64,000 bases of DNA from NCBI GenBank assembly GCA_023460055.1, contig JAEWRJ010000015.1:2496-66495 (forward strand), given 5' to 3'. The position numbers and the translations under genes are program-made. The notes below the pieces were generated by a model that was given only the letters and a program-made list of their open reading frames with translations, made no database searches and was not told the DNA's origin. This DNA is from Bacillota bacterium (lineage in GTDB: Bacteria; Bacillota; Clostridia; Christensenellales; Aristaeellaceae). Position 1 is the stretch's first letter, and each line of letters opens with the position of its first letter. This document shows, one piece after another, positions 285 through 21,390 of the stretch.

Positions 285-527
285 ATGACACAGATCATAA
301 AGCCCCGGAACCTGAGCGTTGATGAACAGCGCATGATAAGCATCTATTCCGCTGAAGCGGACACACGAGAGGAGACCATTGCGATGCTGGAAAAAGTGAC
401 CCGGCATCTGGAAGCGGACGAGGAGGAGCTGATGGCCCTGTGCCAAAGCACACTGGGCAAGCTGAGGGCTATGTCTGATGAAGAATACGCTCTTATTGAT
501 CCTTCTCCGATCATGTCAGGCATCTGA
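285..527 (+). CDS. Transposon-transfer assisting protein (TTAP-like small ICE protein)
   Basis: 80 aa with an SD (AAAGGAGA) upstream. The pattern LSVDEQRMISIY...LEK...LGKLRAMSDEEYALID resembles the small TTAP family of Firmicutes conjugative transposons, recalled from memory. Confidence 0.55.
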   Translation: MTQIIKPRNLSVDEQRMISIYSAEADTREETIAMLEKVTRHLEADEEELMALCQSTLGKLRAMSDEEYALIDPSPIMSGI

Positions 528-610: not shown

Positions 611-3600
611 ATGCCTTTGGTCATCACCATGATGCGGTTTGTGGATATAACGAAGGATGCTGCCGGTGAACTGACAAGGAGTCACCGCAGCTGGACGGCG
701 TATCTGCAGGCAGCCGGACGTTTATACACTTTTACCTTTCCACAGCAGCTGGCGATCTATGCGCAAAGGCCGGAGGCGACGGCCTGTACTTCCTATGACG
801 GATGGCTTGCCCATGACCGGCAGGTCAAATATCGAGCAAAAGGCATTGCGCTGATGGATGACCATCATCTGTATCCGCGCTTGCGCTATGTATTTGACGT
901 ATCCGATACCTATGCCTTGGACCGTTCACCCGCTCCCACACCCTGGACAATATCGGAGGATGCGCAACCCGTGGTAGCCGAAGCCATATATGAACGTTAC
1001 GGCGTTAACCTTGGCAAGGGCCTCCTGGCGCAGCTGGACGCGCTGGCGCATCAGGAAGTTCAGGCGTACTGGGAAGATTTCCGCTCGGACATTCTCCGCA
1101 TCGTTGACGGTTCAGCGCTTGACGACTACGATCATATCAGCATTGAGCAGCGGTTCAAGGCAGCCGCAAGCGCAAGCCTGGCCTATACCCTGATGGATCG
1201 ATGCGGGCTGGAACCTGACAGGTACTTTGAGCCGGAGGACTTCGCCGCCGTGTATGACTTTGACGCAAAGTCGGTCACGGCGCTGGGATCGGCCATCAGC
1301 CGAATCAGCGGCGAAGTGCTCAGGGGCATCGCGGAGATTATCAAGGACGAGGGGCAACGCAAAAGCGCGGAAAGGACGGAAGACAATGAAAGAGCTGAGC
1401 TACAGGCGGGAAGGGGCGTATCTGGTACCGAATCTGATGCCGGACGCGCAGATGGCGGAAGCGATAGGCAGGTACGGCCTGATGCGCAGGACGCATTTGG
1501 AGAACAACAGGCCCCTGATCTACGACCAGATGATAATGGAGGGGACGCTGTACGCGCACCTGGCGGAGATCGACAAGCAGGCGGAGGAGCGTCTGGAACT
1601 GATGATGCGCCGGGGGAAGGCCCGGATGAACCTGAGCGAGGAACTCAAGGACAAAGACCCGATGGCCTGGGTAGGGCTGATGAACAACCTGAAAGCGCAG
1701 GCGGAAGAAGTCATTCTGGAGGATCTGATCTACAGCTGAACCAGCAACTGAACCTATTTGAATCCCCGGAGATGACGGCGGGAGCTGTCCAGCAGGCGGA
1801 GCGCGGATCATTTTCGCACTTCGCCTTTTCATATGCGGAGGAAGAGACAGACCATATCCTGCGGCTTGGCGGAAATGAGCGTCAGTCCAGGGAGCGGATA
1901 GCCGATCAGTACATGATGTCCAAGCCCTTGGAAGAGATCGCCGCGTTTCTGAGCCGTGAGTATGTGGGCGGCAGCGGGCTTGTCACGGATAAAGGCAGGC
2001 TGTCTGCCTGGTACGCAGAGGACGGCATTCATATCGCCAGAGGGAATGCTGCCCGGTATATCAGCTCGGCGCAGGTCATGACCTGGCAGGAAGCGGCCGC
2101 TCGAATCGGGGAACTGCTGGACGAAGGACGCTTCGCAAGCCATGCGGAGCTGGCCGAAGCGAACAATCATGTGCGCAGGCGGCTGGCGGATTCTCTTCTG
2201 TTTTTATATCAGGACTTGTCAGACACGGCTCACCAGTACGGACATCTTACATCCATAAAAGTCTATCATGCCATGAACCATGGCGAACGCACGGCCCGCT
2301 TAGCGGAGGCACTGGCCGAACCGCGGTTTCTCAGGGACTTCACGACCGAGTATCAGCGGTTCTTGAACCTGTATAAGGATCAGCCCGACTTGCTCCGCTT
2401 TCACCATCATCGGACGGACGAGCTGCCTGCCCGTCTGCGCGATCTTGCCCTGCCTCGGCAGGCCTATACAAGCGATATGGCCGATGTTCCGCAGACAGGG
2501 CGCTTCATCACCGAGGACGAAATCGACAGCAACCTTGCGGTGCGCGCAAGCGCCAAGGAAGGCAGCAAGGAGCGCATATACCACTACTTCATACAGAAGC
2601 GCTCGCTTAACGAACGGGCTGCCTTTTTGAAAGCGGAATATGGCACAGGGGGGTACAATCACGCCTTGCCGGGTTCGTTTCACAGCGGGATGGACTACAG
2701 CCCCAAGGGCATATACCTCAAGAAACCGGAGTGCCCTGATGTGGTGATGACCTGGAATCAAGCTGCCAGGCGCGTCGATGATCTGATCCTGCACAAGCGA
2801 TACCCCATCCCCAGAACGCTGGATGATCCTGCGCGGACGGTGACAGCGGACGATATTGACGAAGCCCTCAGGGAAGGGAACAGCAGTACAAACAGCCAAG
2901 ACAATGCGGTTGATATCATACCGGATATTCGGGACGATGAGGATGATGTTATTGACGTAGAGGCCCTCAAAGAAAGATTGGCTCAGCGTGGTTTTCATAA
3001 CGGTGAGTTCACTGACCCGGAGGCGCTTGACAACGATCCTTTCATTCGTATGGTTCAAGCAACGGTAGACCAAATCGCTGAGCGGGAGGACCGGCTTAGG
3101 CAGGAAGCGGAGAAAGTACGTGATCCGCTCACACCCCCATATAAAACAGGCGACAGCGTATACCTGGAGCACAAGGCGTTCGTGATCGAGAACATAAGCG
3201 ACCATCATGTCGAGCTGCGCAATCCCGCTCAGGTCTACCCCATCTTCCGAACGGAGAGCAGACAGCGCTTTGAACAGATGCTGTATCAGGACGGGCGCAA
3301 CGGGCATATCACGGAGTTCCTGCCTGCCGATTTGAACCTGACCGATAATGACCTGCAGGATGTCCTGACCTCTGAGGGCGGCCTGCTGATCCAGCGCGAT
3401 AAGGACTATATCTCCGGCTGGATTCGGTCGGGCGAGGGAAATACCCGCGTGGCGCAGAAATTGTCGGAGATTTATGCGAAGACTGCGGAAACAATGAACC
3501 TGGTCAGCGGCGAAACCATAGACTATTTTGCCTCGGCAACTGGGCTGGAGATAGACTTTCAAGAAGATTCGGTCATGAAGCTTTCCTTCTCATGGAGGGA

Positions 3601-6600
3601 GATAGCCGCTGTGCTGCGCGCCATGTATCTGCGGGAGCGCGACGGCTTCTTTCAGGAAGCGCCTGAAAGAGAGGCTGTGCGTCTGGCGGGGGAGCCTGTC
3701 TATAAGCTCGGCGATCGGGTTGGTTTTCCCGGTCATGACAGGGATATCAGCGGCACCATCGTCTATATCGGCGACAAAGACATTCGCATTCATACAGGCC
3801 CCTATTCCTGGAGCGATGAAGTGGTCAGCAGGGCCTTTTTTGAGGAAGCTATCCGGCAGGATGAGCGCAATCGGGCGCTCTTCATTGTTCCTGAGGACAA
3901 GCCCGCTCCTGTCATCACTGCGCAAACTGTTGCTGTCCATCCGGCCATCCAGAATGGTTTGCCCTATGATATTGTGTTCGAAACCCTTCACATCGATCAG
4001 CCGGAGCCGCACCTTGCGTCCATGCAGGCCAGGGACGCCGCGCAAAAAGCTGAGAATTACCGCATCACCGATGACGCGCTGGGCCGGGGGGGCGCTAAGG
4101 CGAAGTACGGCTATAACATCGAAGCGATCAGGACGCTCAAAAAAATAGAAGCCGAGGGGAGAAGCGCCTCGCCGCAGGAGCAGGATGTTCTCTCACGCTA
4201 TGTGGGCTGGGGCGCGTTATCTCAGGTCTTTGATAAAAATGCTCAGTCATGGGAAAAAGAATATCAGGAACTGAGCGATCTGCTCAGTCCAGAAGAGTTC
4301 AAGGCAGCGCGATCTTCCACACTCAACGCGCACTATACCTCTCCTGTGGTCATACGGGCCATCTATACGGCCATCGAAGCCATGGGCTTTGACGGCGGGA
4401 ATATCCTGGAGCCGTCGATGGGCGTCGGCAACTTCTTCGGCCTGCTCCCTGAGAGCCTGCGCGCGAGCAGGCTGTACGGCGTAGAGCTGGATCAGCTGAC
4501 CGGGCGGATCGCGCGGCAGCTGTACCCGCGGGCTGACATCACCATCGCGGGCTTTGAATCGACCGACAGGCGCGATTTCTATGACCTGGCCATCAGCAAT
4601 GTGCCCTTCGGGAATTATAAGGTATCTGACCACGCCTATGACAAGCTGAACTACAGCATTCACGATTACTTCTTCGCCAAGGCCCTGGATCAGGTGCGGC
4701 CGGGCGGTCTGATCGCTTTCATTACCTCCCACTTTACGCTGGATAAGCAGTCCGATGAGGTCCGCGCGTACATTGCCCGCAGAGCCGAGTTCTTGGGGGC
4801 TGTACGCCTGCCCAATACGGCTTTCCTGCGCAATGCCGGTACGGAGGTCACGAGCGATATTATCTTCCTCAAGCGCCGTGAACAGCCGCTTGAGATAGCG
4901 CCCGATTGGCTGCAGCTGGGACAAACTGATGAGGGCGTTCCCCTTAACCGCTACTTCCTTGAGCATCCAGAGATGGTGCTGGGGAAGATGGAGATGATTT
5001 CAGGCTTATACGGCAAGGAAGCCGCCTGCGTTCCCGTTCCCGGTCAGGAGCTGGCGGAACAGCTGCAGGCGGCCATGCGGAACATTCGTGGTGAGTATGA
5101 AAAAGCCCAGCCGATTGAGCAGGGCGATGCGGGGATACAGGATGACATACCTGCCGATCCGGATGTCAGGAACTATGCCTATACCATCCACAGGGGGGAG
5201 GTCTATTACCGGGAAAACGCGCGCATGCGCAGGCCGGAGATCAGCGCCAATGCCAAGGACAGAATCCGCGGCCTGATTGCGCTGCGTGAAAGTGTACACC
5301 GCTTGATCGATCTGCAGATGAGCGACGGCGCGCCGGAGGAGGGGATGCAGGCGGCGCGCAAGGAACTGAACCGCCTGTATGATGCCTTTTCCGGACGGTA
5401 CGGTCTGATCAACGACCGGGCCAACGCCAAGGCGTTTTCGGGAGATTCGTCCTTCTATCTGCTCTGCTCCCTGGAGGTATTGGATGAGGAGAACAGGCTT
5501 AAGCGCAAGGCTGATATGTTTACAAAGCGAACCATCCGTCCGCATCAGGTGGCGACTTCCGTCGATACGGCGACGGAGGCCTTGGCGATTTCGATTGCCG
5601 AACGGGCCGGGGTGGATATGCCCTATATGAGCGGCTTGACAGGCAAGGATGAGGATACGCTTTACCGGGAGCTGACTGGCGTGATCTATAAGGATTTCAT
5701 CGATCCTGTGAACGGGCTGTCCCTCTATCGAACAGCGGATGATTTCCTGTCGGGGAATGTCCGCCTGAAGCTTAAAAAGTATAAGGAACTTGTGGATCGG
5801 CTGCCGCAGGAGCACCATGACCTGCCTGCGCTGCGTGTGAATGTGGAAGCCCTTGAAGCCGTACAGCCGGCTGATCTGGAGGCAACGGACATTGAGGTAA
5901 GGCTGGGCGCGACATGGATAGATCCCGCTGTCATTCAAAAGTTCATGTTTGAAACTTTCCTGCCCTCGCCCTATCTTCGCTTCGGCGGCTTGGAGGTGCA
6001 TTACGCCCCTATGACGGCTGAATGGTCAATCTCGGGCAAAAATCATGTCAACTTCAATGACGTCAATGCCTATACCAACTACGGCACAGAGCGGGTCAGC
6101 GCCTATAAGATACTGGAAGAGAGCCTGAACCTGCGGGACGTGCGCGTCTATGATAGCTATGAGGATGAACACGGCAATAAGAAACGGGTGCTGAACCAGA
6201 ATGAAACGACTTTGGCGCAGACCAAGCAGCAAGTCATCAAGAATGCTTTTGTTGATTGGCTGTGGAAGGACGCTGATCGGCGGCGGGAGCTGGTTGAAAC
6301 CTACAACGTGTTATTCAACAGCCTGCGCCCCCGTGAGTATGACGGGCAGCATCTGCGCCTGGCGGGCGCTAACCCAGAAATCAGGCTGCGGGATCATCAG
6401 CTCAACGCCATCGCGCATATCCTCTACGGAGAGAATGTGCTGCTGGCGCATGAGGTCGGCGCGGGCAAAACCTTTGAAATGGTGGCTGCCGCGATGGAGT
6501 CCAGGCGTCTGGGTCTGTGCAGCAAGTCCCTGATCGTCGTGCCCAACCACCTGACGGAGCAGTGGGCCGCGGAATTTCTGTACCTCTATCCGGCGGCCAA

Positions 6601-9016
6601 TATACTGGTCGCGACCAAGAAAGACTTTGAAAAGAAGAGCCGGAAGCGTTTCGTTTCACGCATCGCCACAGGCGATTATGATGCCATCATCATGGGACAC
6701 AGCCAGTTTGAAAAGATACCGGTGTCCGCTGAGCGTCAGGAGCGCTTCCTTCAGGAACAGATTGATGAGATCAACGACGGCATTGAGGAGCTGAAGTCAT
6801 CGCGCGGTGAGCGGTTTACCATCAAGCAGATGGAGCGCACCCGAAAGCAATTGGAGGCCCGGCTGGATAAGCTGCATAAGGCTGAGCGCAAAGATGATGT
6901 CATCAGTTTTGAGCAGCTGGGAGTTGACAGGCTGTTTGTCGATGAGGCGCATCACTATAAAAATCTGTTCCTGTATACCAAGATGCGCAATGTCGCCGGG
7001 CTTTCCGCCACGGAGGCGCAGAAATCATCGGATATGCTGCTCAAGTGCAGGTATCTCGATGAGATCACAGGGGGCAAGGGGATTGTGTTCGCGACAGGTA
7101 CGCCTGTGTCCAACTCCATGACCGAGATGTACACCATGATGAGGTACCTGCAGCACGATACGCTTCTCAGGCATGGCCTGACGCATTTTGATGCCTGGGC
7201 CAGTACCTACGGCGAGACGCAGACGGTCATTGAGCTGGCTCCGGAGGGGACAGGCTATCGCGCGCGGACACGCTTCGCCAAGTTCTTCAACCTTCCTGAG
7301 CTGATGACGATGTTCAAGGGGGCAGCGGACATCAAGGTGAAGGATCAGCTGGATCTGCCTACGCCGGATGCGGTTTTCCATAATGTCATCGCGGAGCCGA
7401 CTGAGCATCAGAAGATGCTGGTCGGCGAGTTGTCAAAGCGGGCGGCTGAAGTTCACGGGAGGCAGGTCGATCCCAAGGAGGACAACATGCTCAAGATCAC
7501 CTCTGACGGCAGGAAGCTGGGGCTTGATCAGCGCATCATCAATCCGCTCTTGCCGGATGATCCCGGCAGTAAGCTTAACCTGTGTGTGGACAATGTGTTC
7601 AGGATATGGGATGAGTCGCAAGCCGACAGGCTGACGCAGCTGATTTTCTGTGATATCAGCACACCGCGCAAGAAGAGTTCAAAGGAGGAGAGTACCGCCG
7701 CGCAGGAGGATGAGCAGGGGACAGATGGCGTTGATGTGCGTGACTTGGATGCCCTGATGGATCATCATTCGGATACGGGCAATGGTTTCTGTGTCTATGA
7801 TGATATCCGGGCCAAGCTGATTGCCCGAGGCGTTCCCGCTGATGAGATTGCCTTCATTCATGACGCCAATACCGAGCTTCGAAAGAAAGAGCTGTTCGCC
7901 AGGGTGCGCTCCGGGCAGGTTCGTGTATTGCTTGGCAGTACCTTCAAAATGGGCAGCGGCACGAATGTGCAGGACAGACTGGTCGCCTTGCATGATCTGG
8001 ATTGCCCCTGGCGGCCGGGTGACTTGGAGCAGCGCGCCGGCAGGATCGTTCGTCAGGGCAACCTGAATGAACAGGTGCATATCTACAGGTATGCGACCAA
8101 CGGCACCTTTGACAGCTACCTGTGGCAAACAGTGGAGAATAAGCAGAAGTTCATCGGCCAGATCATGACGTCCCGCAGCCCGGTCAGAACCTGTGAGGAT
8201 ATAGATGAGACGGCGCTGTCCTATGCTGAGATCAAGGCCCTGTGCGCCGGGGATGAGCGGATCAAGGAAAAGATGGATTTGGATATGTCGGTGTCGAGGC
8301 TGAAGCTGCTGAAGTCGAATCACCTGAGCCAGCAGTTCAAGCTGGAAGACAGCCTGATGAAAAGGTTTCCTGAGCAGATCGTTCTGACCAAGGAGTATAT
8401 TGCCGGGTTTGAGCGCGATATAGCGGCCTTATCGTCGCATCCCTTGCCCGCAGAGGGTTTTGTTGGGATGAGGATAGGAGCGCTTGTCTATGAGGATAAG
8501 GAAAAGGCAGGTGTGGCCCTTCTGGAGGCTTGCGCGCGGCTGAGCGTCACGGGCGCTGAGCCCATCGGGCAGTACAGGGGTTTGGATATGTTTCTCGCGC
8601 TGGAGAACTTCGCGGCAACGTATCGGCTGACGCTCAAGGGCGCGATGGCGCATCCGGTGGAGCTGGGGCAGGATGCCAGGGGGAATATCACGCGCATCGA
8701 CAATGCCTTGGCGCAGGCGCAGGATAAGCTGGCGTTCCAAAGGGCGGCGCTGGATGATCTTTATATGCAGATAGAGTCTGCCAAGGCGGAAATAGGAAAG
8801 CCCTTTGCGCAGGAGGAGGAGCTGCGCGAAAAAATGGCCCGCCTGACGGAGCTGAATAGTTTGCTCAACATGGACGGCGCGCCTGCGCCCGTGCTCGCGG
8901 AGGCGGAGGAGGTCGTGGCGAAGTCTGTCAGACCGTCTGTCCTTCAGCAGCTGAGGCCGTCTGTTCCAGCTATCAGAACCGGGGAGGATCATAGGCCCCA
9001 TGAGGCGGTGAGGTAA
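611..9016 (+). CDS. Giant polyvalent conjugative-element protein: ArdC-N-like N-terminus, low-complexity linker, helical LPD-type modules, N6-adenine DNA methyltransferase and SNF2/DEAD-like helicase
   Basis: Single 2801-aa ORF. Methyltransferase motifs are ILEPSMGVGNFFG (SAM motif I) and ISNVPFG (NPPY-type motif IV). Helicase motifs are LAHEVGAGKT (Walker A), FVDEAHHYKN (DEAH box) and EQRAGRIVRQGN (motif VI). The N-terminus (SYDGWLAHDRQVKYRAKGIALMD) looks ArdC-N-like. The stop overlaps the mobC ATG (TAATG). Confidence 0.85.
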   Translation: MPLVITMMRFVDITKDAAGELTRSHRSWTAYLQAAGRLYTFTFPQQLAIYAQRPEATACTSYDGWLAHDRQVKYRAKGIALMDDHHLYPRLRYVFDVSDTYALDRSPAPTPWTISEDAQPVVAEAIYERYGVNLGKGLLAQLDALAHQEVQAYWEDFRSDILRIVDGSALDDYDHISIEQRFKAAASASLAYTLMDRCGLEPDRYFEPEDFAAVYDFDAKSVTALGSAISRISGEVLRGIAEIIKDEGQRKSAERTEDNERAELQAGRGVSGTESDAGRADGGSDRQVRPDAQDAFGEQQAPDLRPDDNGGDAVRAPGGDRQAGGGASGTDDAPGEGPDEPERGTQGQRPDGLGRADEQPESAGGRSHSGGSDLQLNQQLNLFESPEMTAGAVQQAERGSFSHFAFSYAEEETDHILRLGGNERQSRERIADQYMMSKPLEEIAAFLSREYVGGSGLVTDKGRLSAWYAEDGIHIARGNAARYISSAQVMTWQEAAARIGELLDEGRFASHAELAEANNHVRRRLADSLLFLYQDLSDTAHQYGHLTSIKVYHAMNHGERTARLAEALAEPRFLRDFTTEYQRFLNLYKDQPDLLRFHHHRTDELPARLRDLALPRQAYTSDMADVPQTGRFITEDEIDSNLAVRASAKEGSKERIYHYFIQKRSLNERAAFLKAEYGTGGYNHALPGSFHSGMDYSPKGIYLKKPECPDVVMTWNQAARRVDDLILHKRYPIPRTLDDPARTVTADDIDEALREGNSSTNSQDNAVDIIPDIRDDEDDVIDVEALKERLAQRGFHNGEFTDPEALDNDPFIRMVQATVDQIAEREDRLRQEAEKVRDPLTPPYKTGDSVYLEHKAFVIENISDHHVELRNPAQVYPIFRTESRQRFEQMLYQDGRNGHITEFLPADLNLTDNDLQDVLTSEGGLLIQRDKDYISGWIRSGEGNTRVAQKLSEIYAKTAETMNLVSGETIDYFASATGLEIDFQEDSVMKLSFSWREIAAVLRAMYLRERDGFFQEAPEREAVRLAGEPVYKLGDRVGFPGHDRDISGTIVYIGDKDIRIHTGPYSWSDEVVSRAFFEEAIRQDERNRALFIVPEDKPAPVITAQTVAVHPAIQNGLPYDIVFETLHIDQPEPHLASMQARDAAQKAENYRITDDALGRGGAKAKYGYNIEAIRTLKKIEAEGRSASPQEQDVLSRYVGWGALSQVFDKNAQSWEKEYQELSDLLSPEEFKAARSSTLNAHYTSPVVIRAIYTAIEAMGFDGGNILEPSMGVGNFFGLLPESLRASRLYGVELDQLTGRIARQLYPRADITIAGFESTDRRDFYDLAISNVPFGNYKVSDHAYDKLNYSIHDYFFAKALDQVRPGGLIAFITSHFTLDKQSDEVRAYIARRAEFLGAVRLPNTAFLRNAGTEVTSDIIFLKRREQPLEIAPDWLQLGQTDEGVPLNRYFLEHPEMVLGKMEMISGLYGKEAACVPVPGQELAEQLQAAMRNIRGEYEKAQPIEQGDAGIQDDIPADPDVRNYAYTIHRGEVYYRENARMRRPEISANAKDRIRGLIALRESVHRLIDLQMSDGAPEEGMQAARKELNRLYDAFSGRYGLINDRANAKAFSGDSSFYLLCSLEVLDEENRLKRKADMFTKRTIRPHQVATSVDTATEALAISIAERAGVDMPYMSGLTGKDEDTLYRELTGVIYKDFIDPVNGLSLYRTADDFLSGNVRLKLKKYKELVDRLPQEHHDLPALRVNVEALEAVQPADLEATDIEVRLGATWIDPAVIQKFMFETFLPSPYLRFGGLEVHYAPMTAEWSISGKNHVNFNDVNAYTNYGTERVSAYKILEESLNLRDVRVYDSYEDEHGNKKRVLNQNETTLAQTKQQVIKNAFVDWLWKDADRRRELVETYNVLFNSLRPREYDGQHLRLAGANPEIRLRDHQLNAIAHILYGENVLLAHEVGAGKTFEMVAAAMESRRLGLCSKSLIVVPNHLTEQWAAEFLYLYPAANILVATKKDFEKKSRKRFVSRIATGDYDAIIMGHSQFEKIPVSAERQERFLQEQIDEINDGIEELKSSRGERFTIKQMERTRKQLEARLDKLHKAERKDDVISFEQLGVDRLFVDEAHHYKNLFLYTKMRNVAGLSATEAQKSSDMLLKCRYLDEITGGKGIVFATGTPVSNSMTEMYTMMRYLQHDTLLRHGLTHFDAWASTYGETQTVIELAPEGTGYRARTRFAKFFNLPELMTMFKGAADIKVKDQLDLPTPDAVFHNVIAEPTEHQKMLVGELSKRAAEVHGRQVDPKEDNMLKITSDGRKLGLDQRIINPLLPDDPGSKLNLCVDNVFRIWDESQADRLTQLIFCDISTPRKKSSKEESTAAQEDEQGTDGVDVRDLDALMDHHSDTGNGFCVYDDIRAKLIARGVPADEIAFIHDANTELRKKELFARVRSGQVRVLLGSTFKMGSGTNVQDRLVALHDLDCPWRPGDLEQRAGRIVRQGNLNEQVHIYRYATNGTFDSYLWQTVENKQKFIGQIMTSRSPVRTCEDIDETALSYAEIKALCAGDERIKEKMDLDMSVSRLKLLKSNHLSQQFKLEDSLMKRFPEQIVLTKEYIAGFERDIAALSSHPLPAEGFVGMRIGALVYEDKEKAGVALLEACARLSVTGAEPIGQYRGLDMFLALENFAATYRLTLKGAMAHPVELGQDARGNITRIDNALAQAQDKLAFQRAALDDLYMQIESAKAEIGKPFAQEEELREKMARLTELNSLLNMDGAPAPVLAEAEEVVAKSVRPSVLQQLRPSVPAIRTGEDHRPHEAVR
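1386..1739 (+). CDS. tnpV: TnpV-like protein, ORF nested out of frame inside the polyvalent-protein gene
   Basis: 117-aa ORF in another frame of the 611-9016 gene, with ATG at 1386 preceded by AAGGA. MKELSYRREGAYLVPNL...IGRYGLMRRTHLENNRPLIY...LYAHLAEIDKQAEERLE...DPMAWVGLMNNLKAQAEEVILEDLIYS follows the TnpV family pattern as I remember it. The host frame is Gly/Asp/Arg/Pro low-complexity over exactly this interval. Confidence 0.5.
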   Translation: MKELSYRREGAYLVPNLMPDAQMAEAIGRYGLMRRTHLENNRPLIYDQMIMEGTLYAHLAEIDKQAEERLELMMRRGKARMNLSEELKDKDPMAWVGLMNNLKAQAEEVILEDLIYS

Positions 9017-9354
9017 TGGCCAACAGGCAAAGAGCTTGCCAGATAAAGTTCCGTGTGACTGAGGATGAGCTTGATTTGATCGAGCGGAAGATGGCACAGC
9101 TGGGGACGCGTAACAGGGAGGCGTATCTCAGGAAGATGGCCATAGACGGACTGGTGGTCAAGCTGAACCTGCCGGAGTTGAAGGAAATGATCTCTCTGCT
9201 TCGCCGGGCGAATCACAATATCAATCAGATTGCCAGACGGGCAAACGAGTCAGGCAGTATCTATGAGCAGGATATGGAAGATATCAAGGGGCATTTGGAT
9301 GAGATTTGGCAGGCCGCCAATCAGGTGCTGTCTTCTTTGGCGGCCCTGGATTAA
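9016..9354 (+). CDS. mobC: MobC-family relaxosome accessory protein (ribbon-helix-helix)
   Basis: 112 aa. IKFRVTEDELDLIERKMAQLG..NREAYLRKMAIDG...LLRRANHNINQIARRAN is the typical MobC (bacterial mobilisation protein) pattern. Confidence 0.8.
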   Translation: MANRQRACQIKFRVTEDELDLIERKMAQLGTRNREAYLRKMAIDGLVVKLNLPELKEMISLLRRANHNINQIARRANESGSIYEQDMEDIKGHLDEIWQAANQVLSSLAALD

Positions 9355-10520: not shown

Positions 10521-12596
10521 ATGAAACTAAAGACAATCCATATATCCAATTACCGAAAAATATATGATGTACAACTAAATATGGAAGATAGCATAACCAT
10601 TATTGCTGGAGCGAATAATAGTGGGAAAACCTCTCTTGTTGAGCTGCTTAAATCAGTTTTTGGGAGCGGAAAGTGCAAATTCGAGAGTGATGATTTTTCT
10701 GCTATAGAATGTCAAAAGTGGAGCAATAAAGTCTATCCTATGTGTCGTTCTGCATTTACTAATGGAAAACAAAAAGAAGAAATCGTAACAGAAATATGTG
10801 AAATAATTACCCAGGATGAGAAACCCGAAGATGCTATTATAATACCGCCAATTGAAGTGAAAATTCAAATTGATTATAATGAAAAAGAGGATGACATTCG
10901 CCATTTTGCTGATTATATTATGGAGCTTGACTCGAGCAATACAAGCTTTTACTTTATCTACCGTTACGGATTAAATAGGGATAGATTTTGGAAAAGCATA
11001 GATGCTGAGTACGAAAAGCTCTCTGTCCGATTCAGTAAGCTATCCGAAGACGAAGACAAGAACAAGGATATCGTTCGTGTTGTCAAAGAAATGCTCATAT
11101 CCCTATATGCAGGTTCATGCGAAGAAATGGCATACTTCTCTGATAAATTATATAAAAATAGAGTTGCTATGGATATATCATCATTTAAGAATCTATTTAA
11201 TTATAATAATATTATGGCCGGCCGAACTTTAGATGATGAAAATACCGATAGAACAAGAATTCTAAGCAAAAGCATGGTTGATATCGCCAGCCAAGAAGAG
11301 AGCTGGCAGGATTTGCTTTGCCGCCTTCCGGATCAAATTATTCAGCCTATTCAGCAAGCAAGGATTCAGGAAAGAGTTCGAGAAGCATCGCTTGATTCTT
11401 TACGTGTTACAATGGAGGCAGTTTCCAGAACCAACGGGGGACATGCCGGAAATATTGTAATTGACATGAACGTAACTGAAGATGCTGTCCATGCATTGCT
11501 GAAAAGTATAACTTCTGCAAAATATCAAGCGGATGACCACTATTTGAGAGAGTCTTCGCAAGGGTTAGGATATAGCAATCTTATCTATATCCATCTTCAA
11601 TTAGAGAGGTTCAAGAGAAGCATAGACCCTCTTCTTGTAAATATATTTATAATCGAAGAACCGGAAGCACATATGCATCCTCAAATGCAGAACGTTTTTG
11701 CCCAATACTTATTTGAGTATTACAATCAAGGCATAGGTATACAAGGGGTGCTCACAACGCACTCGCATGAGGTAGTTCGTTCTGCGAAAATCTCCCAGCT
11801 CAGGGTATTGCGTCAGGAAGAGCCTTTCAGATGCAGAATGTTTGACTTGCGCGAATTTCAAAACTCAATTGCATCATGTAAGGAGCTTCTTGAATTCTAT
11901 GATTTTTTCTACGCAGTCAATTTCCCTGATATTATTTTCGCTGACAAAATCATTATGTATGAAGGTGATACAGAACGAATGCTTATAAAAAGTGCATTGT
12001 GCTTAAAAGACTTTGAGTTTATAAGAGGACAGTACGTTTCTTTCGTTCAGGTTGGCGGAGCGTATGCTTATAACTATAAGTCTATTATTGACTTTTTGGG
12101 TATAAAGACTGTTTTGATAACGGATTTGGACTATGACAATGATTCATCAAGCGATACTGATGTCTTGGCCTCTACCACGACAAATTCAACGATTAATAAG
12201 TTTTCTAGAAGCGAACTAAATCAATCAAATCCAACTATACAAAAACTATATGATTGGCAAAATAAATTCGCTCCAATTGTAGTGGGGAGCATTTATCTTG
12301 CTTTTCAAGGGGAAAATGATCATTTTTCAAGGACTCTCGAAGAAGCAATGCTTGCAAAATACTACGGGGTTTCGGCATTAGATAAAAGGTCCGCGAATGA
12401 ATGGAAAAAGAATCGAGGAAAGGACAAACTTATATTCACCATTCCTAGGAAAGAAGAAACTTGCAGTATTCATGATATTGTTGAGCACACATCAAATAGA
12501 AAGACGGATTTTATGTATTCGGTTATCCTCAATAACTTGGTAAATGCAATGCTTCCAGCTTATATAAGGGAGGCATTGTTATGGCTAGCAAACTAA
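10521..12596 (+). CDS. gajA: OLD-family ATPase/Toprim nuclease (GajA-like, class 2 OLD)
   Basis: Walker A GANNSGKTS, signature-like SQGLGYSN, Walker B IFIIEEPEAHMHP and TTHSHE. C-terminal Toprim has MYEGDTE and ITDLDYD (DxD). SD GAGGAG upstream. The 3' end overlaps the next gene by 16 nt. Confidence 0.8.
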   Translation: MKLKTIHISNYRKIYDVQLNMEDSITIIAGANNSGKTSLVELLKSVFGSGKCKFESDDFSAIECQKWSNKVYPMCRSAFTNGKQKEEIVTEICEIITQDEKPEDAIIIPPIEVKIQIDYNEKEDDIRHFADYIMELDSSNTSFYFIYRYGLNRDRFWKSIDAEYEKLSVRFSKLSEDEDKNKDIVRVVKEMLISLYAGSCEEMAYFSDKLYKNRVAMDISSFKNLFNYNNIMAGRTLDDENTDRTRILSKSMVDIASQEESWQDLLCRLPDQIIQPIQQARIQERVREASLDSLRVTMEAVSRTNGGHAGNIVIDMNVTEDAVHALLKSITSAKYQADDHYLRESSQGLGYSNLIYIHLQLERFKRSIDPLLVNIFIIEEPEAHMHPQMQNVFAQYLFEYYNQGIGIQGVLTTHSHEVVRSAKISQLRVLRQEEPFRCRMFDLREFQNSIASCKELLEFYDFFYAVNFPDIIFADKIIMYEGDTERMLIKSALCLKDFEFIRGQYVSFVQVGGAYAYNYKSIIDFLGIKTVLITDLDYDNDSSSDTDVLASTTTNSTINKFSRSELNQSNPTIQKLYDWQNKFAPIVVGSIYLAFQGENDHFSRTLEEAMLAKYYGVSALDKRSANEWKKNRGKDKLIFTIPRKEETCSIHDIVEHTSNRKTDFMYSVILNNLVNAMLPAYIREALLWLAN

Positions 12597-14563
12597 ATAA
12601 TTGTTTTCTAATTAACGCCCCTGCAGGAAGTGGAAAGACGACACAGATAAAGGCAATGGTGCAAAAATATATTGTTGAGATGCCCGGAGATAACATTCTG
12701 TGTATTACTTACACCAACCGTGCTGCAGAAGAGCTGTCAAATGGAATTGAATCAAAAAATGTGTATATCGGTACTATACATTCTTTCCTTCATGCATTTA
12801 TGAAGCGGTATTTTACTCACCAAGATATTCTTGATTTATATTATGAAGTATATGGTGACCAAATTAAGGGACGCATTGAAAACCTTGAACAGACTGATTA
12901 TGTTGCAGATAGCAATAGTAAATATGTAGAAAAATATGGTGAGCTTAGCTACGAAGCAATTCGAAAAAATATAAAGACTCTTTCATATAATGAATCTCCA
13001 TTCAACTCTCTATATTATGGGGGGCTATCCCATGATGACTTAATAAGTTTTTCAAAACATATTTTTGATCGATATTCCATTATTGGGAAAATGATATCTT
13101 CAAAGTATCAGCATATTTTCATTGATGAATACCAGGATACAATGGCGGATGTTTTGAAAATATTTTATAAAAGTGTTGCTGGATCGAACACACATTTATA
13201 CTTGTTTGGGGATCGAATGCAGCAGATTTATAGGAATTATGATGGTTCTTTTGAAGAGCAATTTGAATTATTTGACACTACGCAGTCACTATTGATTAAT
13301 CATCGATCAGTGACGGCCATTGTGAAACTATTAAATAAAATATGTAATGATCCATCTTTTGATCAAGATAATTCGCGCAAAATGAAGTCAGTAAGCGCGG
13401 ATTTTTTACCGCGCATTGTTATTAGCGACAACATTGATGAATCGATTAATGGAATAAAAGAATCTGATTCAAGTGCCTTGGTGCTGTATCTTCTGAACAG
13501 AGAGCGCTTTGGCTATATTGGTGCCCTTAACCTTTATCAAGCATTTTCTGGGATGGATAAGTACTCATTTGGTAAAACCTATACAGCAGTGGATGTACTA
13601 ACAACGCCCTATGATGTAAACCCAGATCCTTTGATAAAAGTATTATACTGCATTGTTCATATGGCAGACTGCTATCAGAAGGAGCAGTATGGCTCAATTA
13701 TTCAGACGTTAAAAACATATAAGTCAATGTTCTGTAAGGACAGCTGGTATATCAAAACGCATGATGACAAGAAAAAACTGCTTAGCAAATTGAAGAAAGT
13801 GTTTGCGGGTTTTAAGGATGAGAATAAAACAATAGCTGATTTGCTAACTATGCTTTTAGATACTTCAATAGCGGAAAACACTTATGTGGAAGGTATTTAT
13901 GCCGATAGAGATTATCACCAGGTATTCGATGTGCCTGTTATTGAATTAAAGCGAGTTATCGAATATCTGGGAAATCCTAAAGTATCAACGCAGCATGGAG
14001 TGAAGGGGGAAAGCCATGATAGCGTGGTGTTTGTCGCAGATAACTGTAGTACTAATCCCGTAGTCCATATGTATCGGTTTTTTGACATGTGGGGAAATTT
14101 CTCGGTTTCATTAAAGCCATTTAGCCAGTTTTATTACAGCTATATTACTGAATTGGCTGATTTACAGTACACTATTGGTATAAAAATAAGTGATCTAAAA
14201 AAGGACACTTATACTCAGCACGAAAAGGCAATCAGTGAAAAAATCGCTACAATAATTGACAAGTTTACGAATAATTCATATTTTATGTATCTGTGTATGG
14301 AAAAATATGACCAATACTTAAAAAAACCGGGAGTGACAAAAGCCAAAGACTGTTTGAAAGAGAGCACTGTATTCGGTGTGCTAAGTGCTTATAAACTGTT
14401 TTATGTTGGATGTTCACGAGCAAGAAAAAATCTCACTATTCTTTTGGATCGATCAAAGGTCATAGGAGATTTTGAAAGACAGAAACGCAGATTTATTGAA
14501 ATAGGATTTACAATCTTACAGGCTGATTCTACATTCAATTCAATATCGGAGGGCGGTCAATAA
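12581..14563 (+). CDS. gajB: UvrD/PcrA-like superfamily 1 helicase (GajB-like)
   Basis: APAGSGKTT (Walker A), IFIDEYQDT (motif II), LINHRS, TQHGVKGESHDSVVFV and LFYVGCSRARKNL (motif VI). SD GGGAGG upstream. Translationally coupled to the OLD gene. Confidence 0.8.
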   Translation: MASKLNNCFLINAPAGSGKTTQIKAMVQKYIVEMPGDNILCITYTNRAAEELSNGIESKNVYIGTIHSFLHAFMKRYFTHQDILDLYYEVYGDQIKGRIENLEQTDYVADSNSKYVEKYGELSYEAIRKNIKTLSYNESPFNSLYYGGLSHDDLISFSKHIFDRYSIIGKMISSKYQHIFIDEYQDTMADVLKIFYKSVAGSNTHLYLFGDRMQQIYRNYDGSFEEQFELFDTTQSLLINHRSVTAIVKLLNKICNDPSFDQDNSRKMKSVSADFLPRIVISDNIDESINGIKESDSSALVLYLLNRERFGYIGALNLYQAFSGMDKYSFGKTYTAVDVLTTPYDVNPDPLIKVLYCIVHMADCYQKEQYGSIIQTLKTYKSMFCKDSWYIKTHDDKKKLLSKLKKVFAGFKDENKTIADLLTMLLDTSIAENTYVEGIYADRDYHQVFDVPVIELKRVIEYLGNPKVSTQHGVKGESHDSVVFVADNCSTNPVVHMYRFFDMWGNFSVSLKPFSQFYYSYITELADLQYTIGIKISDLKKDTYTQHEKAISEKIATIIDKFTNNSYFMYLCMEKYDQYLKKPGVTKAKDCLKESTVFGVLSAYKLFYVGCSRARKNLTILLDRSKVIGDFERQKRRFIEIGFTILQADSTFNSISEGGQ

Positions 14564-14721: not shown

Positions 14722-16281
14722 ATGCTTCTAACAGTTGGATCGTCGGTTAAGGGAGAAGGAAACGATTTTTATGTGCTAGATGAGATTATTGGGAAAGGTA
14801 GCTTTGGCTATGTTTTCAAGGCTCGTCGAAAAAAAGATGACGCAGTTTTTGCTGTGAAAGCAATGCTCCCGTCGTTTGGTGATTCTTATTCAGCAGCAAG
14901 CTTCAAAAATGAGATGCGTTTAGCTGAAGCAGTCAAAGGTGATAATATTATTCAATATGAGTTTGTCCATTCAGGCGAAGCATATCCTGAGTTACCGCCA
15001 TACATAGTGATGGAATATGCTGATGGAGGGACGTTGACGCAACAATTGAAGCACAGGCAACAAATAGGAAAGCCTCTGGAACTGGTGGAATTATTAGATA
15101 TATTTAGGCAGCTTGCTCATGGGATGGATGAAATAAACCGTACTCTTGTTCATCGGGATATAAAGCCTGACAATATCTTATTATGCGGGAACACCCTGAA
15201 AATTTCTGATTTTGGTTTGTCAAGAATTGCAATTGAAGGAACTCGGATGTTGACATTTAAAGGTTGGGGTACTCCGCTTTATATGGCTCCAGAGGCATGG
15301 GATTATGGCAAGAATACTATTCAGATGGATATCTATTCAATGGGTATTATCTTTTACGAATTGGCAACATTTAGATACCCTTATTTGCCAGTTCCAAAGA
15401 CCGATGATGACTGCAAAAGCGCTCACCTACACTCAGCAATACAGAATCTTAATAGTGTCAGTAGTTTTTTGACTCCAAGCCTTATCTCTGTTATCAACCG
15501 AATGTTAGAAAAATCCACACAACGGCGGTTTGATAATTGGAAGGATATTATCCGACTGATTGAAGAACAAAAAGAACCTGATTCTATGATTGACAAGTTA
15601 GTTACTGCTACCATTACAGCAAAAAATGCAGAAGACATTGCTCGGCAGGAGAGGGAGAGTAACATTCGACAGACAGTAAAGGAAAAAGATGATTTTTGCA
15701 AATTAGTTCGTTCGCAGTTTGATAATACGATTGTTGCATCGATCACCAGTTATATTGAAAAGGTTAATGAAAAATATGCAGGAAATGAAAAAATCACCTT
15801 CTCGAAAAGTAATGGAGTAGGGTATCAAGCAGAACGCTTTACTTGGGAAATGATTATTCCACCTGACAATGTAATTTCGATTAAGATGGAAGCCATTCTT
15901 AAAGAGAACTATAAGCGGAAAGTCAGAACTAATAGGTTTTGGGGAGAAGAGGGAGTACGAACTGAAAATTACATCCCACAATTCAGTGGGAGGAATATAC
16001 ATGCTTGGGGAGAGGTGAAAAACAAAGCGGGTTATGGTTTCAATTTGTTGTTGATAGATAGTGGTGAAATATATGGAGATTGGCACATAATGAATAATAA
16101 AAATAACCTTAGCTATATGAATAACAAGGAGCGTCGTGAGCCTTTCTCCTTTAGTTTGAATGAACTTCCAGAAGAGATAGACAGGGTGCAAATAACGCAT
16201 CTCTATAGAGCAGTATTTGAGCCTTTTAGTGAGTCATCATTGTTAGATATAATCTCGAAATTAATTTATGAACTAAAATAA
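14722..16281 (+). CDS. Hanks-type Ser/Thr protein kinase with a roughly 240-aa C-terminal domain of unknown type
   Basis: GKGSFGYVFKA glycine loop, FAVKAM lysine, HRDIKPDNILL catalytic loop, ISDFGLSR and YMAPE. SD GGAGGG upstream. I recognise no motif in the C-terminal half. Confidence 0.85.
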   Translation: MLLTVGSSVKGEGNDFYVLDEIIGKGSFGYVFKARRKKDDAVFAVKAMLPSFGDSYSAASFKNEMRLAEAVKGDNIIQYEFVHSGEAYPELPPYIVMEYADGGTLTQQLKHRQQIGKPLELVELLDIFRQLAHGMDEINRTLVHRDIKPDNILLCGNTLKISDFGLSRIAIEGTRMLTFKGWGTPLYMAPEAWDYGKNTIQMDIYSMGIIFYELATFRYPYLPVPKTDDDCKSAHLHSAIQNLNSVSSFLTPSLISVINRMLEKSTQRRFDNWKDIIRLIEEQKEPDSMIDKLVTATITAKNAEDIARQERESNIRQTVKEKDDFCKLVRSQFDNTIVASITSYIEKVNEKYAGNEKITFSKSNGVGYQAERFTWEMIIPPDNVISIKMEAILKENYKRKVRTNRFWGEEGVRTENYIPQFSGRNIHAWGEVKNKAGYGFNLLLIDSGEIYGDWHIMNNKNNLSYMNNKERREPFSFSLNELPEEIDRVQITHLYRAVFEPFSESSLLDIISKLIYELK

Positions 16282-17407: not shown

Positions 17408-18685
17408 GTGGATCGCGTCATACTGCATTGCGACGCCAATAGCTTCTACGCATCGTGCGAGCTGGTGTATCATCCTGAGCTGCGCGGATTGCCAATGTCT
17501 GTTGCGGGCGATGGAGATCAGCGGCATGGCATTATCCTTGCATCCACGCCTGAAGCCAAACGTTGCGGCATTAAGACCGGCATGGTGACTTGGGAGGCGA
17601 AGAAGTTATGCCCTAATTTGATCACGATGCCTGCAAACTTCGAAAGATATCAAAATTTTTCACGCCGTCTCCGGGCAATGTTCCGTGAGTATACGCCTAA
17701 TGTAACGCCATACGGCTTAGATGAAGCCTGGGTTGATCTGACTGGCAGGGGTGTCACCATCGATGATGGCACTATGATTGCCCAGACCCTGCGGCAAAGA
17801 GCCAAAGATGAGCTTGGATTGACCCTTTCAGCAGGAATTTCATTTACGTATTGCTTTTCGAAATTGGGGTCTGACATGAAGAAGCCCGATGCCTCAACGA
17901 TTATCTCACGGGAGAACTATCAGCAGCTGGTCTGGCCGCTGCCGGCGGGCGATCTCCTGTTTGTTGGACCCCACACCGTGCCGAAATTGGCCGCATGCGG
18001 CATCCGCACCATCGGGGACATTGCCAACGCTCCTGAAGGACTCTTAGAATCTTTGTTTGGAAAAGTGGGGCTGATGCACGTCCGTCACGCTACAGGGCAG
18101 TACGACAAACCGCCTATCCCGCCGGAAGAGATGGAGTCTGTAGGTCACTCTGTCACTGCTCCCAGGGATATGGAATCCATCTCGGATGTCAGGTGCGTGT
18201 ATACAGCCTTGGCGGAGGCAGTCTCTATGCGGATGCGTCATTCGGGTGTGGTCGGCCGATGCATCAACATTCATGTCCGCGACAGCAAGCTCAATGTCAG
18301 AGGATGCCAGAAAACCATTGGGTATCACACATCCCTTAGCCGAGAAATTGTTCATGTTGCGATGGAACTTTTTTCCGCCAAACAGTATGAACGAATGCTT
18401 CCGCTCCGCTCTATCGGCGTTAGTGTCTCATCACTACGACACGCGACAGATCCCGTTCAGCTTGACATCTTCGGTGACGAAAAGCGCAGGCAAAAGGAAA
18501 TCAGCCTTGCAGGAACCGTTGATGAGCTTCGGAGCCGCTTTGGAACGATGATGATTCGGCGCGGAAATGTTCTGGCAAGTCCCTCTTTTGCGAATATCAA
18601 TGCATTTGATGATCACACGATATACCCTGGCGGTGATCGTGAGAAGAAAGGTGGAAGCAGATGCAAAAACTACCTCGGCCATTAG
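17408..18685 (+). CDS. Y-family (DinB/UmuC-like) translesion DNA polymerase
   Basis: GTG start after SD AAAGGAGGGG. VILHCDANSFYASCE and the following palm motifs are typical of the ImpB/MucB/SamB family. Confidence 0.85.
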   Translation: MDRVILHCDANSFYASCELVYHPELRGLPMSVAGDGDQRHGIILASTPEAKRCGIKTGMVTWEAKKLCPNLITMPANFERYQNFSRRLRAMFREYTPNVTPYGLDEAWVDLTGRGVTIDDGTMIAQTLRQRAKDELGLTLSAGISFTYCFSKLGSDMKKPDASTIISRENYQQLVWPLPAGDLLFVGPHTVPKLAACGIRTIGDIANAPEGLLESLFGKVGLMHVRHATGQYDKPPIPPEEMESVGHSVTAPRDMESISDVRCVYTALAEAVSMRMRHSGVVGRCINIHVRDSKLNVRGCQKTIGYHTSLSREIVHVAMELFSAKQYERMLPLRSIGVSVSSLRHATDPVQLDIFGDEKRRQKEISLAGTVDELRSRFGTMMIRRGNVLASPSFANINAFDDHTIYPGGDREKKGGSRCKNYLGH

Positions 18686-18954
18686 CGATCAGACAGAATG
18701 TCAAGGTTGATGTTGAGATCGATGAGGACGGAGAGATTGTACCTAAAAGGATATTCTGGCCTGGGCGTGAAGGGGGATGGCGAGAAGTCGAGAAAGGGTT
18801 CAAATCCGGACCGGGTGTCGCGCGTAAGGCGGGCGGTGCTGGTCTGCGCTTTGAAGTTCGCATAGAGAACTATATCTTCGAGCTCTTCCTTGTGGATGGC
18901 ATATTCTTCTTCGAGCGAACCCAGCAGGGTATAATACCCTTACGACAAGCTTAA
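18661..18954 (+). CDS. Small conserved-looking protein coupled to the polymerase, function unknown
   Basis: 97 aa with SD AAAGGTGGAAG. It overlaps the polymerase 3' end by 25 nt. ...ARKAGGAGLRFEVRIENYIFELFL resembles a small family I recall next to Clostridial Y-polymerases. Confidence 0.5.
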   Translation: MQKLPRPLAIRQNVKVDVEIDEDGEIVPKRIFWPGREGGWREVEKGFKSGPGVARKAGGAGLRFEVRIENYIFELFLVDGIFFFERTQQGIIPLRQA

Positions 18955-18964
18955 GGAGGCTTCT

Positions 18965-19531
18965 ATGTGCGGACGATTCTACGCGCCCCCCATTACCATC
19001 GAGGAGCTGCGCTCAGTTGTTAAGGACATCGAGGAAGAGCTGGCGCGCAAGCAGCAGACAGGCGAATACGGGAAGGAATCATTCATCGTTCCCACTTTGC
19101 CGACAATGGCCATTACAGCCGAAGGAGCCAAAGTAATGACTTTCGGATGGAAGAAGGCGCAAAAAGACATGATGCTGAATGCCAGGTGTGAAACCTTGAC
19201 GGGAAAGCCTATGTTTGTGCCTGCTTTTCGAGCAGGGAAGCGCTGTATTCTTCCTGCGACGCGGTTCTTTGAAAAAAAGGGTTTATTCGCCCCCATCAAT
19301 GGTCAGCTTATGTTCATGGCGGGAATATTTGATAACATCGGTTCGCAAGAGTATGACCAGTTTCTTGTTATCACGCGGGATGCTGATCCAGTGATAGCGC
19401 CATATCACCACAGGATGCCGCTGCTGCTTCCCAGCGAGGAATTGCGCAAAGCGTGGTTACATAGTGACACACTGGCGGAAGAATTACTTGATATGCCGGT
19501 GGATATTCCGCTCAAAGATATTACTCAGTGA
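18965..19531 (+). CDS. SOS-response-associated peptidase (SRAP/YedK/HMCES family) abasic-site processing protein
   Basis: Starts MCGRF (catalytic Cys2), the hallmark of the SRAP family. 188 aa. Confidence 0.8.
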   Translation: MCGRFYAPPITIEELRSVVKDIEEELARKQQTGEYGKESFIVPTLPTMAITAEGAKVMTFGWKKAQKDMMLNARCETLTGKPMFVPAFRAGKRCILPATRFFEKKGLFAPINGQLMFMAGIFDNIGSQEYDQFLVITRDADPVIAPYHHRMPLLLPSEELRKAWLHSDTLAEELLDMPVDIPLKDITQ

Positions 19532-19547
19532 AGGGCCTGATCTGATG

Positions 19548-19572
19548 AAAGCGCTGAACCAGCGCTTTTTTT
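19548..19572 (+). terminator. Rho-independent terminator after the SRAP gene
   Basis: AAAGCGCTG-aac-CAGCGCTTT followed by TTTTT. Confidence 0.7.
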
Positions 19573-19606
19573 GTGTGTCAGTGTACAATAATGATAGGAA
19601 GCGATA

Positions 19607-21010: not shown

Positions 21011-21053
21011 TTGTAGGCAAGTTAGTTATAGATGAATAGGCTTTGACCTCAGT

Positions 21054-21092
21054 GTACGGCGCGATGGGGATGAAATGGATCGCCGTACTTTT
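21054..21092 (+). terminator. Terminator after the relaxase gene
   Basis: GTACGGCG ... CGCCGTAC (8-bp stem, large loop) followed by TTTT. Confidence 0.5.
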
Positions 21093-21390
21093 CAAGCGCC
21101 TTTCCCCCATGAACCATACCTGAGCTGTTACTGACAAAGTTTTCCAGCCTGTTAGGTGAATAAATCTAAGCATGGAATCAGCATTACAGATGACACCCGG
21201 TTCAAGGGATCGGATGCTTCAAATCGCTATGCCCTTCAGCGCAGAACACAGGGCGGCGGCATTTACGCATCCCTGTGACGGAGGGTTATGAATGGACGAA
21301 TATAAAGACACATGCAGGCGGATAGATGCCCGAATGGCCAATACTGATGACTTTCCTTGACCCAGAGTTGTGATAGAAAGGAGAAATACT

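Follow-up and report, generated by a model that had tools for sequence, protein, structure and literature searches.

We describe here a small gene of the TnpV family, tnpV, that lies inside a giant gene on the same strand, in a 64,000-nucleotide (nt) stretch from a Bacillota bacterium of the Aristaeellaceae (GenBank assembly GCA_023460055.1, contig JAEWRJ010000015.1, forward-strand positions 2,496 to 66,495; this whole stretch is called the window below). Our results make it very probable that the two form a conserved nested gene pair, a case of overprinting, in the backbone of a Clostridia-type conjugative element. According to this reading, the same 354 bases would be read in two frames. The long frame would encode a disordered tether, rich in Gly, Asp, Ala, Arg, Glu and Pro, joining a 258-residue ArdC-like head to a methylase-helicase body of about 2400 residues. 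The +1 frame would encode TnpV, a folded protein of 117 residues translated from its own Shine-Dalgarno (SD) site and ATG. TnpV would be the dominant constraint on the shared sequence, and the long frame would be kept open mainly by purging T and preferring G at the third (wobble) position of tnpV codons, thus dictating the composition of the linker. Both TnpV and the giant protein are probably made, judging from the comparisons of sequences presented below.

A nested tnpV gene in the linker of a polyvalent-protein gene

The tnpV open reading frame (ORF) occupies positions 1386-1739 (+), from an ATG to a TGA, and its 117 codons give a 117-residue product. It is wholly contained in the 'polyvalent' gene at 611-9016 (+; 2801 codons), in its +1 frame, since (1386-611) mod 3 = 1. 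An earlier sequence-only reading of the window had taken the small ORF for a full-length TnpV placed entirely inside the 2801-residue ORF in another frame, and had proposed a profile search as a check. The ORF passed it: hmmscan with the Pfam TnpV model (PF14198) gave E 1.1e-33 and 116 bits (cut-off 27), and the match covers residues 6-115, corresponding to profile positions 2-111 of 111. None of the ten other alternative-frame ORFs of at least 81 residues overlapping the giant gene has a Pfam match. The E-value of tnpV is sufficient by itself, and we consider the nested ORF real and specific. Neither TnpV nor residues 1-600 of the giant protein had a match in NCBIfam. The family-invariant residues Y6, P15, K88 and W95 are retained in the window copy. 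The gene also has the start signals described earlier, its own ATG at 1386 and, as SD site, a GAAAGGA (including the AAGGA of that description) at 1370-1376 (+), 9 nt before the ATG, where the long frame reads the 'ER' of SAER.

The giant gene starts with a segment encoding the N-terminal head of 258 residues (611-1384, +), followed by a low-complexity, presumably disordered linker (1385-1744, +; long-frame residues 259-378) that is coextensive with tnpV. Over this region the long frame encodes a 119-residue stretch composed to 87% of G, D, A, R, Q, E, P and S, and QLNLF is encoded directly after it, at 1745-1759; the description of a low-complexity linker between head and QLNLF was thus accurate. 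Domains without a known family come next, then an adenine-methylase-like region (NVPF at residue 1330) and an SNF2/ResIII helicase (DEAH at residue 2111). Pfam detects SNF2-rel_dom, ResIII, DEAD and Helicase_C in the giant protein, with weak matches to Eco57I and MTase_II. Several unrelated domains including a methylase-SNF2 dyad, together with conjugative-element neighbours, make up the architecture of a polyvalent protein.

The likeness of the head to ArdC, also proposed from the sequence, could not be seen at the sequence level but emerged from the predicted fold. The head has no match in Pfam (E up to 1), in NCBIfam or in a sequence-profile search of the PDB. Its AlphaFold model has a pLDDT (predicted local distance difference test) of 91, and in a fold search of the PDB the top three hits were ArdC of plasmid R388 (6i89: E 1.4e-3, probability 1.00, template modelling score 0.46-0.49), followed by the Rad4 BHD. 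The head is thus ArdC-like by fold only, and the modelled fold fits the ArdC-N 'header' of polyvalent proteins of conjugative elements (PMC5512222).

TnpV itself is modelled by AlphaFold (pLDDT 86.7) as an N-terminal beta-hairpin followed by five helices. A Foldseek search with this model found no significant match in the PDB (none with E below 5) or in BFVD, and the sequence search against the PDB gave a chance match alone (E 0.77). A statement in PMC3158075 attributes to Bannam et al. 1995 the postulate that TnpV has an excision role like that of lambda Xis. The predicted fold gives no support to a lambda-Xis-like, winged-helix TnpV, and there was no Xis among the PDB fold matches.

Both frames among relatives and the origin of the overlap

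A search with the first 600 residues of the giant protein returned 4656 homologues of similar length, and those inspected share the same head and a linker of the form SAER...RGLSD..RP..QVREDAE..GDR..GADDAG..RPDEVGG.DEQ...QL. We also scanned species-representative genomes with TnpV, which returned 80 loci, 78 of them usable. In 68 of these 78 the long frame starts 750-860 nt upstream and crosses tnpV without a stop, also at loci with 35-37% GC, while the third frame has 9-19 stops in this set and 7-19 over all nested loci. Openness to this extent is not what the TnpV protein sequence would produce by itself. When each TnpV was back-translated according to the codon usage of the sequence flanking it, the long frame was open in 0.2% of trials on average, and for the window in none of 500. 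Shuffling tnpV's own codons among synonymous positions left it open in 7% on average and in 14% for the window. All 50 of the stand-alone tnpV genes have stops (1-19) in the frame corresponding to the long frame.

Conservation of the tnpV frame was addressed with an independent search that used an alignment of the head domain only. All 80 loci found in this way have a full-length match to the TnpV hidden Markov model, in the +1 frame, directly after the head and with zero stops, and in all 80 the long frame continues through tnpV. As these loci were found through the head alone, conservation of the tnpV frame is free of ascertainment bias. Stops or indels in that frame among relatives, which the sequence-only reading had named as grounds for giving up the nested gene, were seen in none of the 80. 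All searches together yielded 201 TnpV ORFs, of which 146 follow a head in the nested arrangement, with the long frame open. The 145 outside the window come from about 136 organisms (134 Bacillota, 120 Clostridia, mostly Oscillospiraceae and Lachnospiraceae), and the nested sequences form 52 clusters sharing less than 60% of their 3-mers. Cultured strains with a nested locus include [Clostridium] asparagiforme DSM 15981 (L123), Hungatella hathewayi DSM 13479 (L133), Roseburia inulinivorans DSM 16841 (L114) and Faecalispora sporosphaeroides DSM 1294 (L037).

Translation start signals are conserved as well. The SD site of tnpV, GAAAGGAG, is kept at a fixed 8-nt spacing: GAAAGG(A/G)G precedes the ATG in every nested locus of the TnpV-based set, and among the head-ascertained loci the ATG is present in 80/80 and GAAAGG in 74/80, always with 8 nt between octamer and ATG. 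The conserved 'ER' of SAER in the long frame follows from this GAAAGG motif. The body of the giant gene shows nothing similar. In 52 representatives its first in-frame ATG lies anywhere from 2 to 259 codons past the tnpV stop, and 23 of them have no SD-preceded body start within 300 codons. Since it lacks a conserved start, ribosomes must reach the body from the head, by way of the linker.

Selection was measured in 59 phylogenetically independent pairs of nested loci. Differences at tnpV codon positions 1, 2 and 3 amounted to 0.100, 0.074 and 0.192, and position 3 exceeded position 2 in 56 of the pairs (p 5e-11). The least variable tnpV position is the third position of the long frame, which rules out that only the long frame is coding. 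Compared with the head, tnpV positions 1 and 2 evolve as slowly (p 0.27), while position 3 evolves 24% more slowly (0.192 vs 0.252, p 2e-7), the extra constraint expected of a second frame. The same bases give amino-acid sequences that are 86.8% identical when read as TnpV and 75.1% identical when read as linker. Thus, tnpV is under purifying selection with extra constraint on its synonymous sites. The codon alignment of the downstream domains was noisy (variable offsets, mosaic bodies) and was left out of this analysis.

Base composition tells how the second frame is kept open. T makes up 8.2% of third positions in nested tnpV, compared with 24.7% where tnpV stands alone and 22.9% at third positions of the head; G reaches 49% in nested copies and 25-27% in the other two groups. 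The window tnpV has 5.1% T and 57% G at these positions. Each long-frame codon begins on a tnpV wobble base, so that purging T removes TAA, TAG and TGA from the long frame, and favouring G gives Gly, Asp, Glu, Ala and Val there. The odd composition of the linker is largely a by-product of these two biases.

Between the window tnpV and that of its closest relative, L002 (contig CAZBJM010000022.1), there are 7 changes at position 3 and 2 each at positions 1 and 2. L002 is the sole close relative of the window element, with a TnpV 96% identical. It is binned in a metagenome-assembled genome (MAG) labelled Methanosarcinales archaeon, and its long ORF terminates at 863 codons. It was likely mis-binned, or else the copy is broken. 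Two other loci deserve mention. L074, from an Acetobacterium MAG, carries a single TAA (2997-2999) between the SD site and the tnpV ATG that ends the head at 258 codons, and its body frame runs on for over 1119 codons without a stop. In L073, which is nearly identical, GGA stands at that site; the TAA reflects either a naturally split form of the gene or an error of sequencing. L082, in a Monoglobus plasmid record (NZ_OY725736.1, 163208-163561), has its nested ORF called 'TnpV protein' by RefSeq, while the surrounding 2193-codon frame is absent from the RefSeq gene table. As the head of L082 has an early stop, its giant gene was probably called a pseudogene. This case shows pipelines choosing one of two overlapping genes.

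Regarding the origin of the overlap, nested and stand-alone copies cluster in a TnpV tree (unrooted, 118 columns, weakly resolved), with 9 changes between the two states vs 30 in shuffles. Five stand-alone copies (L003, L017, L020, L038 and L083) sit inside the nested group. The first four, all from the genome scan, have 1-3 stops in the former long frame and no head or body nearby; L003, L017 and L020 retain GAAAGGAG, and the upstream sequence of L038 differs. These stand-alone copies within the nested group look like escapees from the nested arrangement. We infer that tnpV came first and that read-through of tnpV created the linker frame, since TnpV is a folded family with independent stand-alone members, since the linker frame is of low complexity and nonexistent outside the nested context, and since stand-alone tnpV genes occupy a similar slot in related integrative and conjugative elements (ICEs).

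Expression signals and alternative readings

A putative sigma-70-like promoter motif, TTGACG-17 nt-TACGAT, lies within the head-coding region at 1104-1132 (+), about 253 nt before the tnpV ATG. The same motif is found about 256 nt before the tnpV ATG in about 35 of 51 representative nested loci, where it falls on head residues V-D-G...Y-D. The synonymous codons that form it are nearly fixed: Val is GTT in 21/21 (background 24%), the first Asp GAC in 25/28 and the second Asp GAT in 33/34, while background usage of the motif-forming codons is about 24-53%. This codon choice points to a function as promoter.

A hairpin lies 56 nt past the tnpV stop, at 1795-1832 (+) and inside the long ORF. It reads GGCGGAGCGCGGA-TCATT-TTCGCACTTCGCC, is followed by TTTTCAT and folds at about -20 kcal/mol. 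Covariation was assessed in 30 loci picked by protein motif and not by structure: 98.1% of cells are paired and 9 of the 13 pairs show compensatory changes. None of 500 shuffles reached these values, and slid controls gave 35-61% pairing. In L086, L123 and L135 the stem is kept though the encoded amino acids change. A covariance model found the hairpin at the expected place in 75/79 head-ascertained loci and, for the first set, in 50 loci; among stand-alone tnpV loci it found it in 0/10. With a strict search for a hairpin plus five T, the element was retrieved in 14 of the 51 representative nested loci. Downstream of stand-alone tnpV there is often a strong terminator of the ordinary type, whose end lies 31-44 nt past the stop. 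The hairpin probably acts as a partial terminator or a pause site. Between this element, about 56 nt past its stop, and a probable promoter of its own within the head-coding region, tnpV would be a small transcription unit set into the giant gene.

From these signals one could go further and propose that tnpV is an autonomous unit, that the hairpin is a translation-sensitive attenuator and that the overlap is both a switch between 'TnpV only' and 'TnpV plus anti-restriction giant protein' and the trace of a gene fusion made by reading through an intervening gene. Ribosomes on the long frame would melt the hairpin and let RNA polymerase proceed into the 7.2-kb body, while transcripts on which tnpV alone is translated, with its stop 56 nt upstream, would end at the hairpin. 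We think this extended proposal unlikely.

Several observations weigh against the nested-pair reading or limit what it says. The window copy is a divergent TnpV: the Asp of the GDY motif, present in at least 90% of 87 TnpV sequences, is Ala here and in L002, and the terminal branch of the window TnpV measures 1.1 substitutions per site, vs a median of 0.17. This long branch and GAY for GDY leave room for relaxed function in its lineage. The window head is also divergent, with 31-43% identity to other heads, and head and TnpV being similarly divergent, the whole element of the window is a distant lineage. The loci are related, so that the per-locus probabilities of about 0.002 obtained by back-translation are not independent and do not simply multiply. 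The extra constraint on synonymous sites of tnpV is modest (24%), and the amino-acid sequence of the linker as such may be hardly selected. The TnpV tree, being unrooted, does not tell the ancestral state or the older frame. Finally, the T-run after the hairpin is short, TTTTCAT in the window and TTTTTCT in relatives, and a simple terminator scan of the window did not call it.

Among rival explanations, the one that survives best holds that the long frame is open to keep ribosomes on the mRNA, so that neither polarity nor termination at the hairpin intervenes ahead of the 7.2-kb body, and that the linker peptide is irrelevant and maybe cleaved. The weakly constrained linker sequence and the conserved terminator-like hairpin just downstream agree with it, and polyvalent proteins have been proposed to undergo protease processing (PMC5512222). 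However, the body has no conserved start, so that it is translated as a continuation of the head anyway. This explanation, which differs from the nested-pair reading in the reason for selected continuity alone, seems to us quite improbable.

We think it very improbable that tnpV is a silent relic, taken in at the formation of the linker, with the giant protein as sole product. In favour of this, the title of Lyras et al. 2004, cited in PMC3158075, states that TnpX is sufficient by itself for Tn4451/3 to transpose, which means that TnpV can be dispensable for movement; the divergence of the window copy points the same way. However, a relic would decay at the observed divergence of 40-50%, whereas tnpV is intact at all 80 head-ascertained loci. 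Its SD site and ATG are kept at fixed spacing, and substitutions follow the tnpV codon periodicity, with the third position of the long frame as the least variable one.

A programmed +1 frameshift has also to be considered, by which ribosomes translating the head would change to the tnpV frame and produce a fusion of head and TnpV, besides or instead of free TnpV. In the window, 53 codons without a stop precede the ATG in the tnpV frame (a TTG-started ORF at 1227-1739), and a strong SD-like sequence stands just upstream, as it does at the prfB frameshift site. This extension is not conserved, however: in relatives the tnpV frame meets an in-frame stop 1-81 codons before the ATG, which leaves no conserved room for such a fusion. 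Neither was a conserved slippery motif present among the relatives examined, and an 8-nt spacing between SD site and ATG is typical of ordinary initiation. Frameshift products, the third option of the sequence-only reading, hence find no support, and we hold them to be extremely improbable.

Its second option, that the 2801-codon ORF is an artefactual fusion of a head gene, tnpV and a methylase-helicase gene by chance read-through in GC-rich DNA, could appeal to the 58-60% GC of the region, to the 14% of synonymous shuffles that leave the window frame open and to L074, with its TAA between head and tnpV and its body still open, but we reject it as having next to no likelihood, because the frame is open in 146 nested loci (also at 35-45% GC) where about 0.002 per locus is expected, stand-alone copies carry 1-19 stops in the same frame and the third frame 7-19, T is specifically purged at the tnpV wobble position, and the body lacks a conserved start codon or SD site. 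Overprinting of two proteins, the first option, is the one supported by both frames being open beyond chance, by purifying selection and by a dedicated SD site and ATG.

The element, known nested genes and significance

The neighbours of the giant gene confirm a conjugative-element backbone. Upstream, at 285-527 (+), is a gene for a TTRAP protein (Pfam PF14203, E 2.2e-14), a putative transposon-transfer assisting protein. Downstream, at 9016-9354 (+), is a gene for a relaxosome accessory protein (NikA-like, E 1.9e-13; MobC, E 4.3e-8). The stop of the giant gene (9014-9016) overlaps the ATG of this gene at 9016, which suggests translational coupling. The other backbone neighbours are a MobA/VirD2 relaxase and an LPD1 protein. 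They belong to a further stretch of conjugative-element backbone at 17408-23511 (+), which encodes a Y-family polymerase (IMS, 17408-18685, +), a SRAP peptidase (18965-19531, +), the MobA/VirD2 relaxase (19607-21010, +) and a 713-residue protein with an LPD1 domain (21370-23511, +). Between the two parts, a low-GC island (33-46% GC) starts at about 9400, directly after the 57% GC backbone. It contains a complete Gabija defence pair at 10521-14563 (+), GajA (PADLOC E 2.6e-297) and GajB (E 1.3e-255), in which the stop of one gene overlaps the start of the other. The pair is likely cargo of the element. A Ser/Thr protein kinase gene (14722-16281, +) adjoins Gabija; its best PADLOC matches are the mad6 (E 9e-58) and PD-T4-6 (E 5e-44) kinase families, and it may be a second defence gene.

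Phages offer familiar cases of a complete gene placed in the +1 frame within a second gene of the same strand, with both translated: the spanin genes Rz/Rz1 of phage lambda, and B in A and E in D of phiX174. These nested pairs are under strong genome-size pressure, and Rz and Rz1 act in a single function. In contrast, the host of tnpV belongs to a conjugative element, its host frame is a disordered tether, and the two products have no known functional link. Closer in kind is comS in srfAB of the srfA operon of Bacillus subtilis, likewise a small same-strand gene in another frame of a giant multidomain gene, with products of different function. However, comS, with its 46 codons, is confined to a single lineage, whereas tnpV has 117 codons, belongs to a Pfam family with stand-alone members, coincides exactly with the segment for an inter-domain linker, and is conserved in about 145 elements from many Bacillota families. 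The case of comS in srfA is documented as a non-isoform nested gene, on the same strand and out of frame (PMC12350097).

TnpV of Tn4451/Tn4453 and of Tn6104-Tn6106 is of the same family (PF14198), and stand-alone homologues are annotated as 'TnpV protein' in many plasmids and ICEs. Unlike the nested genes, the stand-alone ones have 1-19 stops in the frame that is open here, normal T-ending codons and often a strong terminator directly after the gene. As for the host gene, polyvalent proteins that begin with an ArdC-N 'header' and contain an adenine methylase-SWI2/SNF2 dyad were described from conjugative elements by Iyer et al. 2017 (PMC5512222). Ours is alike in being a giant multidomain protein of a conjugative element with an ArdC-N-type header and a methylase-SNF2 dyad, and differs in the second gene inside its linker; the words TnpV, overlapping, linker and low-complexity are absent from the text of that paper. 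Full-text literature searches for TnpV alone and for TnpV with overlapping retrieved no description of the nesting. Same-strand out-of-frame nested genes are already known as a kind, and the nesting of tnpV is one that we did not find described in the literature.

Long out-of-frame overlapping genes are held to be rare anomalies in bacteria and are discarded by annotation pipelines (PMC12350097). Most proposed bacterial overlaps lack evolutionary support, and the tnpV overlap is a rare one that is well supported. With stand-alone TnpV copies as a natural control, it offers a clean system to measure how two frames share one sequence. The arrangement also suggests a route by which domains could be fused across an intervening gene. 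It means, too, that a widespread gene of conjugative elements of gut Clostridia is systematically missed or mis-annotated. Moreover, it places TnpV, which is common on mobile elements that carry resistance, beside the anti-restriction machinery of conjugation.

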